18,348 nt of DNA from the IMG/VR virus record IMGVR_UViG_2636415477_000006, positions 1 to 18,348 of that record, one strand, 5' to 3'. A program made the translations under genes and the position numbers. Under the pieces are notes generated by a model. It did not search any database. It was not told the origin of the DNA and was given only the letters and a program-made list of their open reading frames with translations. This DNA is from a virus. Taxonomy: Duplodnaviria; Heunggongvirae; Uroviricota; Caudoviricetes. Positions 3,019 through 12,402 of the stretch are shown piece after piece (within the stretch, counting starts at the first letter, position 1; each line of letters begins with the position of its first letter).

Positions 3019-3240
3019 TCACAACGACGCTGCTTTTACGGGTAAGCCATCGCGCCCGATGAAAACTTTAATCATGCAGTCGGTAATGCATGTTTTTGTT
3101 GTGAAGTTACGAATATAGAGTTTTCTCTTTTCAATATTGTTTGCTGAAGCGATATATGTCCGACCTTCATGAAGAACATAATCGCCAGGCGTCACGCACT
3201 GACGTGGTATTTCATCAGTTCCGAAGTGATGAGCAATCAT
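3019..3240 (-). CDS. kilR: KilR-like small killing protein (Rac prophage FtsZ inhibitor family), 73 aa
   Basis: Start at the internal ATG at 3240 has a GGAGA SD 6 nt upstream; the product [35 protein letters not shown]…[13 protein letters not shown] matches my memory of Rac KilR in sequence and length. Confidence 0.6.
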
Positions 3241-5674: not shown

Positions 5675-6382
5675 TTACCAGCTATGTGATGACCAGAACA
5701 CTCGCCCTATGATTCTTACGTTTTTGTAGAATTCTTCTCTGTTCATTACTTCATCAGGATACTCTTCGCGGTTTATCGATCTGATAATTACCGATGTTGG
5801 CGTGGCTATGAGCGTTTTTACCCTTAACAAATCAGCTTGGCAAATTGCATATGTTTTACCATCCCTGATGCTCGTATCTTGCGTGTTTACCCCCACCACA
5901 TCACCATCATGGAGTGTTGGCTCCATGCTTTGCCCAACAACCCTGACCAACTTTGCCGCTTTTTCTGGAACTCCCATTTTTTTCAGGTAATAGCGCCTAA
6001 AAACTAGAGAGAATTCTGCGGACTCCTCCAATGCACAACTTCCTCCGCCAGCTGAAAGTGAAATATTTAGAAGGGGGAGCGCAACAAATTCGTCATTATC
6101 ATTTTGATGATCATCCCAGGCGATAGCTTTTAAAGATGATTCCCGAGCATTAGATGGCTCTTCTGCGCTCTGTGGTCTCATTGACCCTATACCAGAGCTT
6201 AGCCATTCAGGGCGAACTCTTAACGCGTTGGCTAATTCGACCATTTTACGTGATCCGGTTGTTTTACCAGATGACATCTTTTGTATGGCTGGTTGTGATA
6301 CCCCCACCATGTCTGCAAGTTGTGCTTGTGACAACCCGGCTGAACTCATGGCGGCATTTAGTCTTTCTGCGAATGTTTTCAT
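5675..6382 (-). CDS. cI: CI-type prophage repressor: N-terminal XRE-family HTH plus C-terminal S24 (LexA-like) autopeptidase domain, 235 aa
   Basis: N-terminal …LSQAQLADMVGVSQPAIQKM… HTH; Ala-Gly-type cleavage region (LSAGGG); GQSMEPT serine motif; divergent from cro across an operator-rich intergenic region. Confidence 0.9.
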   Translation of the reverse strand: MKTFAERLNAAMSSAGLSQAQLADMVGVSQPAIQKMSSGKTTGSRKMVELANALRVRPEWLSSGIGSMRPQSAEEPSNARESSLKAIAWDDHQNDNDEFVALPLLNISLSAGGGSCALEESAEFSLVFRRYYLKKMGVPEKAAKLVRVVGQSMEPTLHDGDVVGVNTQDTSIRDGKTYAICQADLLRVKTLIATPTSVIIRSINREEYPDEVMNREEFYKNVRIIGRVFWSSHSW

Positions 6383-6492
6383 ACCTGTAATCTATAACCA
6401 CGGTTATCAAAAGTAAAACAACAATTGTTATTGCCCTGGTGTATAACTCATGTTATTTTTGGTTATGCTTTATTTGCTGTAGAGGTATGCTC
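6383..6492. promoter_or_regulatory. OR/pRM/pR candidate region: three dyad operators (ATAACcacgGTTAT 6394..6407; AACAATTGTT-centred site about 6417..6431; ATAACtcatGTTAT 6444..6457)
   Basis: Repeated ATAAC/GTTAT half-sites spaced about 24-26 bp centre to centre; plausible minus-strand pRM TTGTTT-18-TTATAG ending just before the leaderless-like cI ATG; the plus-strand pR is not pinned down. Confidence 0.5.
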
Positions 6493-6717
6493 ATGAATTT
6501 AGTGATTCAGCGAGCCTTGAATATTGTTGGCAGTCAAAAACGACTTGCAGCTGATTGCGGCGTATCACAGCCCGCTGTTCATAAATGGTTGCGAGGCGGA
6601 AAAGTTTCTCCTGAAAAAGTTTTCGCTATCGTTAATGCCACCAATGGTCAGGTTAAGGCTTACGAAATTCGCCCGGACTTACCGCACCTGTTTCCTCATC
6701 CGAACCAGGCTGAATAA
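6493..6717 (+). CDS. cro: Cro-like HTH regulator, 74 aa
   Basis: GAGG SD 7 nt upstream of the ATG at 6493; product has a …LAADCGVSQPAVHKW… HTH; divergent from cI. Confidence 0.8.
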   Translation: MNLVIQRALNIVGSQKRLAADCGVSQPAVHKWLRGGKVSPEKVFAIVNATNGQVKAYEIRPDLPHLFPHPNQAE

Positions 6718-6833: not shown

Positions 6834-7130
6834 ATGTCACAAACAAGTTACAGCAAACTGTCACAGCGCGATATCGATCGCGCTGAAACGGATTTACTTA
6901 TCAACCTGTCAGCTCTGACGCAAAGGGGACTGGCGAAGATGATTGGCTGCCATGAATCGAAGGTCAGTCGTACCGACTGGCGATACATCGCGGCGATTTT
7001 ATGCGCGTTTCAGATGGCATCTGATATCAGTCCGATCAGCCGGGCTTTCCAGCATGCCATTAACGTTCATGCAAATAAAAAACGTCCGGTTGGGGCCGGA
7101 CGTTCTGAGCAAATCCTGATGAATATCTGA
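6834..7130 (+). CDS. cII: CII-like transcriptional activator, 98 aa
   Basis: AGGA SD; C-terminal …NKKRPVGAGRSEQILMNI resembles the lambda CII C-terminus (…NKKRPAATERSEQIQMEF) from memory; position immediately after cro/nutR. Confidence 0.8.
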   Translation: MSQTSYSKLSQRDIDRAETDLLINLSALTQRGLAKMIGCHESKVSRTDWRYIAAILCAFQMASDISPISRAFQHAINVHANKKRPVGAGRSEQILMNI

Positions 7131-7193
7131 TATTCAGGCAGGGCATGGAGCAATACACGGGAATAATTCTGCCACATCTGGAAGAATTTCGCC

Positions 7194-7350
7194 AGCAACA
7201 ACACCAACCGCAGCAGCCTGAAGCCGATTGGGTTAACCCGGAGATACCGGGACCGTCTGTGAAGATGTGCAGTCACACCAATGTGCAGTCACACCAACCG
7301 CAGCAGCCTGAAGCCGATTGGGTTAACCCGGGAGATACCGGGACCGTCTG
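7194..7350. repeat. Two direct copies of a ~60-bp dyad-rich element (7194..7259 and 7284..7350) separated by a perfect 16-bp tandem duplication (ATGTGCAGTCACACCA x2, 7265..7296)
   Basis: Direct sequence comparison: GCAACAAC(A/G)CCAACCGCAGCAGCCTGAAGCCGATTGGGTTAACCCGG(G)AGATACCGGGACCGTCTG; contains the palindrome GGGTTAACCC and CCCGG/CCGGG inverted arms. Confidence 0.85.
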
Positions 7351-7383
7351 CGGTATGGAGTAAATCTTGTATGCGAGGGGACT

Positions 7384-8460
7384 ATGCGTAATTACGCAAC
7401 AATTTCACCTCAGTTCTGGTTAGGCGAAACAGGGAGAAAACTAAGGAAGTCTGGTCCGGAATGTATGGTAGTGGCGTTGTATATGATGACCTCGCCTCAT
7501 TCCAATATGCTGGGCCTTTATTACCTGCCTGTTTTGTACATTGCTCACGAAACCGGACTTGATCCTGAAGGGGCTTCTAAGGGGCTTCAAATGGCTTGCG
7601 AGGCTGGTTTTTGCAGCTATGACCATGATTCTGAGGTTGTATGGGTGCATGAAATGGCAGCATGGCAGGTTGGTGAATCGCTGAAACCTGGCGATAACCG
7701 TTGTGCTGGGGTAAGAAATGAATATTCCGCGTTGCTGGAAAATCCTTTTTTATCATCCTTTTATGATAGATATAAGGATGATTTCCACCTGGATGTCAGA
7801 CGTGAATCATGTCGGAAAATTGAAGCCCCTTCAGAGCCCCTTTCAAGCCAAGAACAGGAACAAGAACAGGAAAGGGATAAAACCCTTCTGGTCCATGGCG
7901 AAAAAATCGCCACGGACCCGCAGGGGGATTTTTGTCCTGTTCTGACTGAACGTCCAGGACCAGCTGGCACGACACCGGAAGCAGATTCCGGGCGTTGTGT
8001 GCAGCAGGTGCTGATCGTCGAACCGGAGCAACAACGCCAACCGCAGCAGCCTGAAGCCGATTCCGCGATGAGCGGGAAGCCGATTGGGTTAACCCGGGCG
8101 ATGCCGGGACCGTCTGCGGGACGAGTTGATTATCCTGACGTGTTCGAACGGGTCTGGCGTGAATATCCGCATCGGGCAGGGTCAAACCCGAAGAAATCCG
8201 CGTTCAATGCCTGGAGGGCCAGATTACGCGAAGGGGTGTCACCGGATGTCGTGCTGGATGGCGTGAGGCGTTACGCAAGATACCTGGAGGCTACCGGGAA
8301 AGCGGGAACTGAATTTGTTCAGCAGGCATCGACGTTTTTTGGCCCGAACAGGAATTTCGAAAATCCGTGGTCGCTGCCGAAGGCTGGCGCAGTCAGCCTG
8401 CGTTGCGTGAATCACATTTCTGAACCGGACACCGAAATTCCGCCGGGTTTCAGGGGGTAA
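7384..8460 (+). CDS. Putative phage replication initiation protein (O-like/primosomal type), 358 aa, containing a third copy of the upstream repeat
   Basis: Precedes a DnaC-like loader with a 6-nt gap; central acidic SQEQEQEQE linker; position equivalent to lambda O; family assignment by context only. Confidence 0.7.
   Translation: MRNYATISPQFWLGETGRKLRKSGPECMVVALYMMTSPHSNMLGLYYLPVLYIAHETGLDPEGASKGLQMACEAGFCSYDHDSEVVWVHEMAAWQVGESLKPGDNRCAGVRNEYSALLENPFLSSFYDRYKDDFHLDVRRESCRKIEAPSEPLSSQEQEQEQERDKTLLVHGEKIATDPQGDFCPVLTERPGPAGTTPEADSGRCVQQVLIVEPEQQRQPQQPEADSAMSGKPIGLTRAMPGPSAGRVDYPDVFERVWREYPHRAGSNPKKSAFNAWRARLREGVSPDVVLDGVRRYARYLEATGKAGTEFVQQASTFFGPNRNFENPWSLPKAGAVSLRCVNHISEPDTEIPPGFRG
8027..8118. 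repeat. Third copy of the ~60-bp element, inside the replication gene, carrying a 23-bp internal insertion
   Basis: GAGCAACAACGCCAACCGCAGCAGCCTGAAGCCGATT … GGGTTAACCCGGGCGATGCCGGGACCGTCTGCGG matches copies at 7194..7350. Confidence 0.8.
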
Positions 8461-8466
8461 TCAGCC

Positions 8467-9207
8467 ATGAAAAACATTTCGACAGGAGGGATTCTTGAAC
8501 GGGTGCGCCGTCTGGCACCACCGCACGTGGCAGCACCGTTCCGGACGACCGACGAATGGCGGGAATGGCAACTGGCTGAGGGCCGTAAGCGCAGCGAGGA
8601 AATTAACCGCCTGAATCATCAGGCGCGGGTTGAAAAAATCCTGAACCGTTCGGGCATCCAGCCGCTTCACAGGAAGTGCTCATTCGGGAACTACCGGGTG
8701 CAGAACGACGGTCAGCGCCATGCTCTGAGTCAGGCAAAATCCATCGCGGCAGAGCTGCATACCGGCTGCACGAATTTCGTGTTCAGCGGTAAACCTGGCA
8801 CCGGGAAAAATCACCTTGCAGCAGCGATTGGCAACTGGCTAATGGCGAAGGGGAGAAGCGTGATTATCGTCACCGTGTCCGATGTCATGAGTGTGTTGCA
8901 TGACGGCTACGACAACGGCAAGTCCGGGGAAAAATTTTTACAGGAGCTTTGTGGAGTTGACCTTCTGGTCCTTGACGAAATTGGCATCCAGCGTGAGACG
9001 AAAAACGAGCAGGTGGTACTGCACCAGATTGTTGACCGCCGGACGGCATCACTGCGCAGTGTCGGGATGCTGACAAACCTGAATCATGCCGCAATGAGCA
9101 CGCTTCTTGGTGAGAGGATTATGGACCGGATGACCATGAACGGTGGTCGTTGGGTGAATTTTAACTGGGAGAGCTGGCGGTCAAACGTTGGACGTCAGGG
9201 TATGTGA
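8467..9207 (+). CDS. DnaC/IstB-like AAA+ helicase loader (phage replication protein), 246 aa
   Basis: Walker A GKPGTGKNHLA and Walker B LLVLDEIG; follows the initiator gene. Confidence 0.85.
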   Translation: MKNISTGGILERVRRLAPPHVAAPFRTTDEWREWQLAEGRKRSEEINRLNHQARVEKILNRSGIQPLHRKCSFGNYRVQNDGQRHALSQAKSIAAELHTGCTNFVFSGKPGTGKNHLAAAIGNWLMAKGRSVIIVTVSDVMSVLHDGYDNGKSGEKFLQELCGVDLLVLDEIGIQRETKNEQVVLHQIVDRRTASLRSVGMLTNLNHAAMSTLLGERIMDRMTMNGGRWVNFNWESWRSNVGRQGM

Positions 9208-12125: not shown

Positions 12126-12241
12126 TTGACGACAACACATATCCGGGATTATATTCTTCGCACGCCAGCAAAATCTGGCGTCGGGATTAGGAACCCCGGA
12201 TAGAAACCGCGACAGAGACACGCCGCGAGCGTGTTTTTTAT
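12126..12241 (+). ncRNA. Candidate small RNA or terminated leader: promoter TTGACG-17-TTATAT (12126..12154), about 80-nt transcript with hairpin CGCCAGcaaaatCTGGCG and intrinsic terminator (12218..12241)
   Basis: Near-consensus -35/-10 with 17-bp spacer; two hairpins; terminator ACACGC-cgcga-GCGTGT followed by TTTTTTATT; no ORF is involved. Confidence 0.35.
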
Positions 12242-12402
12242 TGTCGTATGCACACGCACATCTGAATTATGGTGGGGCGTATAGGGGAGCTGAAAAGCTC
12301 GCCGGTTGGTTTCCCGGTAGTTCCTAACCCTGTACGTCTCGCCACCCGATGATTAGGAACCTGACGGTGGTGATAGTTTAGAAACCACTCGAGGGCGTCA
12401 TT

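Follow-up and report, generated by a model that had tools for sequence, protein, structure and literature searches.

What role does a dyad-rich piece of about 60 bp play when it stands three times around a phage replication initiator gene, twice in front of the gene and once inside it? The window, as we call the whole stretch of 18,348 nucleotides that was analyzed, represents a lambdoid, Stx-phage-like prophage in which cII is followed by a 72-aa open reading frame (ORF), a 358-aa initiator and a DnaC-like loader. A sequence-only reading of this DNA had proposed that the repeats are origin iterons, a duplication of part of the initiator gene (rep), or a miniature mobile element. Based on comparisons with related prophages, we consider it probable that the upstream repeats are an ordinary segmental duplication which behaves as a variable-number repeat and which is most likely without a separate function.

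The repeats and their setting

The module is bounded on the left by cII (6834..7130, plus strand; Pfam Phage_CII, E 6.5e-26). Its 3' end is overlapped on the minus strand by an intrinsic terminator hairpin (7079..7106) with an 11-pair stem and a subsequent T-run, which is placed as in lambda oop. This hairpin is the only convincing match of our promoter and terminator scan; in Rfam, it obtained solely a sub-threshold match to AgvB (E 0.53). The initiator, or replisome organiser, extends from 7384 to 8460 on the plus strand and is followed by the gene of the helicase loader (8467..9207, plus strand; Pfam IstB_IS21 and Bac_DnaA, PHROG 50).

The initiator is assigned to PHROG 1701, "DnaD-like helicase loader" (E 3e-150), and its C-terminal half matches PHROG 3729 and PHROG 270, both described as "replication initiation protein". 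According to the pLDDT profile of the AlphaFold model, the protein is composed of an N-terminal domain (aa 1-143), a linker (aa 144-247) and a C-terminal domain (aa 248-336). The N-terminal domain has no match in Pfam and no detectable sequence relation to lambda O. A Foldseek comparison of the fold with the PDB revealed weak winged-helix matches (MarR/CAP-like), none of them at E <= 0.001, and a PDB search with the sequence yielded a weak match to the C-terminal tail of DnaT alone. The linker of about 100 residues, in which pLDDT stays under 50 and secondary structure is lacking, is a predicted disordered region. Its DNA (7813..8124, plus strand) holds a variable run of GAACAG hexamers, repeated PEAD(S) units and one copy of the repeat; indels are found here among relatives, and a compensated frameshift (-1/+1) across the element relative to L015 is tolerated.

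Repeat search and MAFFT alignment recovered the three copies exactly where they had been placed before, all on the plus strand: copy A at 7194..7259, copy B at 7284..7350 and copy C at 8027..8118, with about 60 invariant alignment columns. Copies A and B are short forms, A being 1 nt shorter (CCCGGA-GATACC versus CCCGGGAGATACC in B); copy C is the long form and encodes residues ~215-245 of the linker. Each copy possesses one 10-bp palindrome and one 5+5 dyad. The palindrome, GGGTTAACCC, occurs exactly three times in the 18.3-kb window, each time inside a copy; its expected count is 0.02, and three occurrences were reached in none of 200 shuffles. The perfect 16-bp tandem duplication is likewise present, with two units of ATGTGCAGTCACACCA at 7265..7296 (plus strand; TRF and repeat search) forming the junction of two array units. 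The 72-aa ORF (7145..7363, plus strand) holds copies A and B and contains the peptide QPQQPEAD twice; the initiator contains it once, at aa ~219-226. Past this peptide, the same DNA is read in differing frames in the three copies, also in agreement with the earlier description. However, what had been described as a 23-bp insertion in copy C is actually a deletion in A and B, because the orthologous linkers of distant relatives hold both GAAGCCGATT repeats. These 10-bp direct repeats lie at 8053-8062 and 8076-8085 of copy C (8053..8085 as a whole, plus strand) and coincide with the end-points of the indel; deletion between them results in the short form.

Ancestry and variation of the repeats

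Full-length initiators with 68-71% identity to that of the window (L015-L022, L024, L132) contain a homologous linker including both GAAGCCGAT repeats, and the same holds true for a full-length initiator with only 53% identity (L023). In all of these, the DNA upstream has no similarity to the respective initiator gene; hence, no upstream copy is present. Rac-type genes annotated as "phage replisome organizer" are about 82% identical in the linker and C-terminal DNA, from window position ~7979 onward, while their N-terminus is unrelated to that of the window initiator; an upstream copy is again absent. The search that includes these Rac-type matches had hits in a total of 2,815 out of 5,426 E. 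coli genomes, only 75 of them with matches covering most of the query. Judged from these sequence comparisons, copy C represents the ancestral state, and the upstream copies are specific to one lineage.

The upstream copies bear derived characters of the resident allele, namely GGGTTAACCC rather than GGGTAGTCCC and an extra A in CCGGGACCGTC; long-form upstream copies also share the loss of 1 nt in CCGCGA-TGAGC. Because they carry these characters, the upstream copies are young. The palindrome itself is absent from the orthologous linkers of relatives with 53-71% identity, which have GGGTAGTCCC in its place. A history more complex than simple duplication in place is hinted at by the left edge of copy B (GCAGTCACACCAAC), which matches the linker allele of the Rac/L015 type better than the resident one (3/2000 shuffles). 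The 16-bp spacer is a better match to the L015-type allele (3/2000 shuffles); the idea that it is a homologue of the resident sequence just 5' of copy C was dropped, since that match is not significant (400/2000 shuffles).

Among relatives with 97-99% identity, the array is variable; the locus is carried by ~81 E. coli genomes. The spacers between cII and rep comprise 12 distinct sequences in 8 length classes (148, 149, 169, 223, 239, 262, 329 and 396 bp). One upstream copy is present in L005, L008 and L010, and two are found in the window and most other genomes; L133 has three short copies, L007 three long ones, and L137 a mixture of long and short forms. L008 differs from the window by one copy fewer, yet its flanks are identical (0/280 and 0/420 differences). 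The coexistence of relatives with one, two and three copies in otherwise near-identical flanks favours a recent duplication, and the single-copy relatives, together with the distant initiators that lack any upstream copy, support the earlier candidate of a duplicated part of the rep gene. The number of 16-bp units is also variable, with one in L135, two in the window and apparently five in the array behind the 88-aa product P0002, the last figure being read from the protein, which is 16 residues longer. In L006, an upstream short copy has crossed over with copy C within GGGTTAACCCGGG, and the N-terminus of the initiator is lost; the deletion, of ~860 bp, corresponds to a crossover with copy A. 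Where single copies differ by point variants, these lie in the arms of the dyads.

The copies do not evolve strictly in concert. Such a process was suggested by L007, where GATGCC is found in all four copies; it fails in L011, L091, L101, L117 and L119, whose internal copy has GATGCC and whose upstream copies do not. Within the cII-linked lineage, an intact initiator is always accompanied by at least one upstream copy. This is weak evidence for a need of one copy, because unequal crossover cannot drop below one and the lineage is young (97-99% identity).

The candidate origin and the small open reading frame

If the repeats were origin iterons, they would be expected to be about 10-22 bp long and in regular helical phase inside a compact origin. 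The copies, by comparison, are 60-90 bp long and irregularly spaced (90 and 766 bp), and no AT-rich unwinding element adjoins any of them (GC 0.55-0.67). The iteron candidate is further opposed by the absence of the palindrome from orthologous linkers and by the fact that the linker is common to initiators with an unrelated DNA-binding domain. A better set is provided by AAGGGGCTT, a motif that does not occur in the 60-bp element. There are two clusters: cluster 1 (7566..7589, plus strand) contains AAGGGGCTT twice with 11-bp spacing, and cluster 2 (7822..7845, minus strand) contains AAGGGGCTT and AAGGGGCTC with the same spacing, inverted with respect to cluster 1 and in direct orientation in some relatives. 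The two pairs are about 255 bp apart and flank the only AT-rich trough found in the GC profile (7730..7789, GC 0.33), a candidate unwinding region. Their spacing agrees with the helical phasing expected of iterons, and 68 distant homologues keep the two-cluster layout, including those with an inverted second cluster. Most likely, the real binding sites of the initiator are these candidate AAGGGGCTT repeats inside its gene.

The earlier argument that conservation follows the DNA, and that this points to a DNA-level function, does not carry, because near-identity between recent paralogues is uninformative about selection. A structured RNA or cruciform was considered and rejected: folding of the RNA of 7131-7400 is unremarkable (z -0.93), as is folding of the DNA of the single copies (z -1.66, -0.02 and +0.66), and Rfam has no match in the array at its gathering or E-value thresholds, with none at E <= 1 in 7145-7383. 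A simple consensus scan predicted neither sigma-70-type promoters nor intrinsic terminators in the upstream array. The sole match touching a repeat is terminator-like (8111-8123) and overlaps the last 8 nt of copy C.

The 72-aa ORF is catalogued as PHROG 2751, a family of unknown function. Its start and first 28 residues are common to all variants, which are 41, 42, 46, 51, 58, 62, 72, 76, 88 or 102 aa long and differ in their C-terminal frames; in L007, a stop codon inside the first copy truncates the frame. The ORF ends 20 nt before the ATG of rep and overlaps this ATG when only a single 16-bp unit is present. All five DNA substitutions in its unique 5' part are nonsynonymous; these, like the few point variants in the dyads, are to be read as a total of only 4-5 events in a young lineage. 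A homology search returned 10 clusters, all of them length or frame variants of the same ORF, with E. coli as the source in all seven named cases. No homologues were found outside this E. coli/Shigella prophage lineage, nor any match in Pfam and NCBIfam, and a blastn search of 7050-7200 in distant mode retrieved the same six phage records only. We also considered that the unique N-terminus of the ORF (MEQYTGIILPHLEEF) might stem from an older initiator; the homology search gave no longer protein that shares it. With a length and frame that vary, a restricted distribution and nonsynonymous substitutions, the ORF shows no conservation as a coding sequence, and it is probably not a real gene, but an accidental, unstable frame across the array.

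Formation of the array and its parallels

According to the model that we prefer, copy C is an ordinary part of the initiator gene, coding for some 30 residues of a long, disordered and indel-tolerant linker that joins the N-terminal, presumed origin-binding domain to the C-terminal domain. In an ancestor of the cII-linked prophage lineage, a linker piece of ~90-115 bp would have been copied into the spacer between cII and rep; the route may have been illegitimate or homologous recombination during module shuffling. Later, the fragment would have acted as a small variable-number tandem repeat (VNTR), with slippage or unequal crossover between direct repeats altering how many 90/113-bp array units (1 to 3) and 16-bp junction units (1, 2, apparently 5) there are, and whether the 23-bp segment framed by the GAAGCCGATT repeats is present. 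Exchange between upstream copies and copy C would also take place: in one lineage, a crossover has deleted the N-terminal domain along with the presumed origin, and in another, gene conversion is possible. The palindromes would be by-products of the coding sequence of this allele.

The features known from segmental duplications and VNTRs are found here, i.e. a paralogous fragment beside its parent gene, parent orthologues without extra copies, copy-number polymorphism among near-identical genomes, indels bounded by short direct repeats (the 10-bp GAAGCCGATT and the 16-bp unit), and deletion by recombination between copies. What is different is that the parent is the linker of a phage replication initiator and that the origin-binding domain and the presumed origin lie between the repeats, whose recombination would disable replication.

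The duplication could have had a more specific origin, which is no alternative to it and likewise implies no present-day function, although we regard it as rather unlikely: a cassette of rep leader, N-terminal origin-binding domain, iterons and linker would have been exchanged by a single crossover with the resident linker, leaving the repeats as a scar, possibly a reusable handle, and the array would then have grown by slippage. What lies between the repeats is indeed exactly the leader, the N-terminal domain and the iterons of AAGGGGCTT; recombination of the repeats excises this cassette in L006, and copy B has a left edge that is similar to another linker allele. Furthermore, the linker is a demonstrated mosaic joint, because the Rac-type organisers combine this linker and C-terminal module with an unrelated N-terminal domain. 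However, a displaced older gene lacks support, given that MEQYTGIILPHLEEF is found in no longer initiator, and the derived characters of the resident allele in the upstream copies fit a purely local duplication equally well. If such an exchange took place, insertion and excision of cassettes at a common linker would allow lambdoid prophages to swap their origin specificity, and the array in front of the gene would mark the left-hand joint of this event. We consider it improbable that the copies are cis-acting sites regulating origin firing or rep expression, be it as auxiliary binding sites of the initiator or a host factor, as plasmid-style control iterons or as handcuffing sites. Their position around the origin region and within the pR-type transcript just 5' of rep would suit such a role, as would the palindrome and dyad in each copy and the constant presence of at least one upstream copy in the lineage. 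On the other hand, the element lacks AAGGGGCTT and an AT-rich neighbour, the palindrome is missing in orthologous linkers, the linker is shared with initiators whose DNA-binding domain is unrelated, and relatives with 68-71% identity manage without upstream copies; moreover, copy number, spacing and form vary freely, and variants strike the dyads.

A genuine small protein as the product of the ORF (42-102 aa), or a frame-changing contingency switch, seems very improbable to us. In these cases, the product might mimic the QPQQPEAD motif of the initiator, and the 16-bp units might alter translational coupling to rep. The shared start and 28 residues, the close approach to the rep ATG or overlap with it, and the PHROG entry speak for this possibility, but neither the C-terminal sequence nor the length is conserved, the frame is interrupted in L007, the five substitutions in the unique part are without exception nonsynonymous, and homologues are confined to the lineage, with no Pfam or NCBIfam entry. 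The constancy of the 5' part may have another explanation, as it probably overlaps an oop-type promoter region. Three insertions of a MITE- or REP-like miniature mobile element are hardly credible. What recalls such elements is the presence of short dyads and, at the ends of copies B and C, of a weak inverted match of 6 bp (CCGCAG...CTGCGG) that is disrupted in copy A; yet in a scan of IMG/VR for exact 16-mers, the element is confined to the cII-rep spacer and the rep linker, and the flanks of other matches are unrelated. An equivalent exact 16-mer scan of GTDB with one genome per species (185,579 genomes) gave 104 loci with single, unrelated matches, set against our own estimate of a few hundred expected by chance. 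Apart from such chance matches, both scans return the element from this locus alone. Besides, copy C is orthologous coding sequence in relatives, and reading by eye, we noticed no target-site duplications at the ends of the copies.

The preferred model, a duplication of linker DNA, can be set beside three known systems; literature searches on lambdoid iterons, linkers and mosaics yielded no description of this repeat locus. In phage lambda, ori consists of four 19-bp iterons for the O protein and an AT-rich region inside the O gene. The order of cII, initiator and loader is the same here, the likely origin also lies inside the initiator gene at the boundary of N-terminal domain and linker, and both initiators have their DNA-binding domain at the N-terminus, joined by a flexible linker to a C-terminal domain. 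In contrast to lambda, it is not the 60-bp element that forms the iteron-like set here, but AAGGGGCTT in two 11-bp-spaced pairs on either side of an AT-rich region, and the N-terminal domain (PHROG 1701) is one without detectable relation to O. At mosaic joints of lambdoid phages, N-terminal origin-specificity domains are exchanged on a common C-terminal domain. The ~82% identity to Rac-type organisers with another N-terminal domain corresponds to this pattern, and the repeat corresponds to the joint region; unusual for such joints, a tandem array made of a piece of the joint additionally precedes the gene here. The control iterons of plasmids and of the P1 type (incA/incC, handcuffing) flank the rep gene, much as the repeats lie on either side of the initiator's 5' half. 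They are degenerate sites of ~19-22 bp, however, whereas the repeats have a length of ~60-90 bp, hardly differ from each other and bear no relation to the presumed binding motif; they are also dispensable in relatives and under no apparent constraint in number.

The main value of these results lies in correct annotation: the 72-aa "hypothetical protein" of PHROG 2751 probably arises as an artefact from a repeat array, and the repeats should not be labelled as an origin. For Stx-type prophages that are otherwise nearly identical, the locus provides a hypervariable marker, and it is a recombination substrate which may knock out prophage replication, with one natural deletion seen. A more useful by-product is the conserved two-cluster layout of AAGGGGCTT in the widespread and poorly characterised initiators of PHROG 1701, which offers a testable prediction of the origin for many enterobacterial and Acinetobacter prophages.

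The repeat and its parent sequence

The repeat is real and its explanation is ordinary: a fragment of the DNA coding for the linker of the phage initiator was probably duplicated into the spacer between cII and the initiator gene. There it now behaves as a short tandem array that is unstable and undergoes recombination with the parent copy as well. As the sequence-only reading had described, two dyad-rich copies of ~60 bp lie upstream of the gene (A, 7194-7259; B, 7284-7350) and one inside it (C, 8027-8118), together with a perfect 16-bp tandem (7265-7296). Copies A and B differ by 1 nt. The window contains three copies of the palindrome GGGTTAACCC, against an expected 0.02, and QPQQPEAD appears twice in the translated 72-aa ORF of the spacer and once in the initiator.

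The window represents a Stx-phage-type lambdoid prophage, and its positions 7100-8200 share 97.5-99% identity with Escherichia phage PhiR5_2, phiSTEC1589-Stx1c and the Shigella phages POCJ13 and 75/02 Stx. Around the repeats the genes run in the order of a cI-like repressor (5675-6382, minus strand), a cro-like gene (6439-6717), cII (6834-7130; Pfam Phage_CII), the 72-aa ORF (7145-7363), a 358-aa protein (7384-8460), a DnaC/IstB-like ATPase (8467-9207) and a DUF1627 protein. A Pfam search of the 358-aa protein returned no match; PHROG 1701 ('DnaD-like helicase loader') covers its full length (E 3e-150), its C-terminal half matches PHROGs labelled replication initiation proteins, and depositors have named it replication protein O, primosomal protein I or DNA-binding protein. 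Gene position and PHROG matches thus identify it as a phage initiator or replisome organiser. Its C-terminal tail (aa 334-358; window 8440-8460; ~25 residues, NHISEPDTEIPPGFRG plus those preceding it) weakly resembles that of DnaT (PDB 2ru8, 6aep and 9zbt, E 0.008-0.03; NCBIfam NF002770, E 0.009), which may explain the old name 'primosomal protein I'.

In an AlphaFold model based on 33 homologues, the N-terminal domain (aa 1-143) and the C-terminal domain (aa 248-336) are predicted with confidence; the 104-residue segment between them, which includes copy C (aa ~215-245), has pLDDT < 50 and no secondary structure. By nucleotide alignment, copy C is orthologous to the linker (CACCAACTGCAGCAGCCTGAAGCCGATTCCGCCATTCAGCGGGAAGCCGATCGGGTAGTCCCGGAAAGCACCGGG-CAGTCTGTGGGACGAGTGGAT) of full-length relatives at 68-71% identity (L015-L022, L024, and L132 in E. 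coli FEA3) and at 53% (the Klebsiella-type L023), whose upstream DNA is of unrelated sequence and does not resemble their own initiator genes. Rac-type 'phage replisome organizer' genes possess the same linker and C-terminal module (~82% identical DNA from window ~7979 onward) fused to an unrelated N-terminal domain, with no upstream copy; the search containing them matched 2,815 of 5,426 E. coli genomes in all, of which only 75 had matches over most of the query. This orthology shows that copy C is ordinary coding sequence belonging to a shared linker module. The novelty is the upstream copies, and of the origins proposed earlier for the repeat, duplication of part of the initiator gene is the one that agrees with these data.

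Because the relatives' linkers carry both GAAGCCGAT repeats, the 23-bp segment that separates the long form (C) from the short form (A and B) is ancestral. The length difference noted earlier therefore stands, but not its reading as an insertion in C: copies A and B lost the segment by deletion between 10-bp direct repeats. Compared with the L015 and Rac-type alleles, the window allele has one -1 and one +1 indel (~8063-8110), and ~13 linker codons are frame-shifted (QREADRVVPESTG vs SGKPIGLTRAMPG); the presence of this allele in viable phages illustrates the low constraint on the linker sequence. A GAACAG/GAACAA hexamer run (7849-7872), encoding (EQ)n in the linker, differs in unit number among close relatives and is a second slippage-prone tract in the gene. 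Initiator lengths of 358-366 aa were seen.

Variation of the upstream array

The cII-spacer-initiator arrangement is present in 81 of 5,426 complete E. coli genomes, six phage records and about 35 IMG/VR contigs. The check proposed earlier, whether copy number varies among related prophages, gives a positive answer: the fetched loci include 12 distinct spacers in 8 length classes. Two short copies are found in the window and most other loci, one in L005, L008, L010, L112 and L113, and three in L133 and L134; L007 has three long copies with a period of 113 bp, L137 a long copy followed by a short one, L138 a single long copy with a 3-nt deletion, and L135 two copies with only one 16-bp unit. 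Five 16-bp units would account for a further variant, known at the protein level (P0002), whose product of 88 aa exceeds the 72-aa ORF by 16 residues. Since L008 has one copy fewer than the window between identical flanks (0/280 and 0/420 differences), the array changes are very recent.

In two genomes (E. coli SW071611, L006 2063-2474; SW07163), a crossover that joined an upstream short copy to copy C has removed the N-terminal domain of the initiator, leaving only a C-terminal part that NCBI labels a pseudogene; the result is a replication-defective prophage remnant. There is no general co-variation of upstream and internal copies, and several loci have GATGCC/GGGAGATGCC internally and standard copies upstream. 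Over the 23-bp segment, the long copy A of L137 matches copy C exactly, as would be expected either from occasional conversion or from retention.

The 16-bp unit and left edge of copy B (7260-7296; GCAGTCACACCAAC) are closer to the L015/Rac-type linker allele (GCAATCACACCAAC, L015 ~3159-3178) than to the resident allele, a match reached in 3 of 2000 shuffles, and the array may therefore derive from more than one linker allele. The resemblance of this edge to another allele is also compatible with the first upstream copy being the scar of a cassette exchange, as are the position of the repeats, which lie precisely on either side of the leader, origin-binding domain and iterons, and the nature of the linker, a proven mosaic joint.

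Candidate replication origin, and tests for a function of the repeat

Like lambda, whose ori lies inside O, this prophage has candidate initiator binding sites inside its initiator gene. The window contains three exact copies of AAGGGGCTT, all within this gene, and a fourth copy with one mismatch lies alongside. They form two clusters with copies 11 bp apart, one on the plus strand (7566-7589; copies at 7568 and 7579) and one on the minus strand (7822-7845; copies at 7823 and 7834), and the GC minimum of the region (0.33 at 7730-7789) falls between them. Across 68 distinct IMG/VR homologues of the N-terminal domain, down to ~50% identity and including Acinetobacter-phage proteins, the core AGGGGCT recurs at the same two locations (+160-220 and +400-500 relative to the start codon), with 11-bp spacing in 123 of 126 cases and only 14 matches elsewhere. 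The orientation of the second cluster varies, with 14 sequences having it direct and 35 inverted; it encodes EGA(S/F)KGL in the relatives L015 and L023, and EAPSEPL in the inverted DNA of the window. That the motif is kept while orientation and translation change is strong comparative evidence of selection at the DNA level, independent of the encoded peptide, and is the signature expected of initiator binding sites. The true origin is likely to be the two AAGGGGCTT pairs flanking the AT-rich trough.

None of these features is seen in the 60-bp element. Its earlier interpretation as origin iterons finds no counterpart here, as no AT-rich element adjoins it and the palindrome GGGTTAACCC is not conserved in the orthologous linkers, which have GGGTAGTCCC instead. 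A miniature mobile element, also proposed, is contradicted by its confinement to this locus: neither IMG/VR nor one genome for each of 185,579 species contains it in another context. RNA and DNA folding of the element is not unusual, and it has no Rfam match. The few independent point variants of the upstream copies all lie within dyad arms (7330 G>A in L002; 7236 A>T in L126, breaking the palindrome; a cluster of 4 changed positions in L097; copy 1 of L007), so the dyads show no sign of protection. Promoter- and terminator-like sites are absent from the upstream array, and a single terminator-like site extends into the last 8 nt of copy C.

The 72-aa ORF and other elements

Conservation of the 72-aa ORF as coding sequence is not borne out. 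Its length and C-terminus differ with every array variant (42-102 aa; in L007 41 aa, with the stop inside the first copy), only the first ~28 residues are constant, and a homology search found no homologue outside this lineage. Five DNA substitutions were seen in its unique 5' part, each of them nonsynonymous; four distinguish the window from L007 and one is found in L122. A residual cis-regulatory or small-protein role is unlikely; the comparative data do not call for one. A strong intrinsic terminator hairpin on the minus strand (7079-7106), antisense to the 3' end of cII, occupies the position of lambda oop RNA; in Rfam it has only a sub-threshold match to AgvB (E 0.53). Given this position, the constant 5' part of the ORF, just downstream on the plus strand, may hold an oop-type promoter.

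Elsewhere in the window, Rfam predicts on the plus strand, at gathering level, two copies of the sRNA STnc100 (16118-16309 and 16585-16794), the Hfq-binding RNA isrK (12162-12239) and a C4 antisense RNA (12265-12349), elements of the kind seen in regulatory regions of lambdoid and P1-like prophages.
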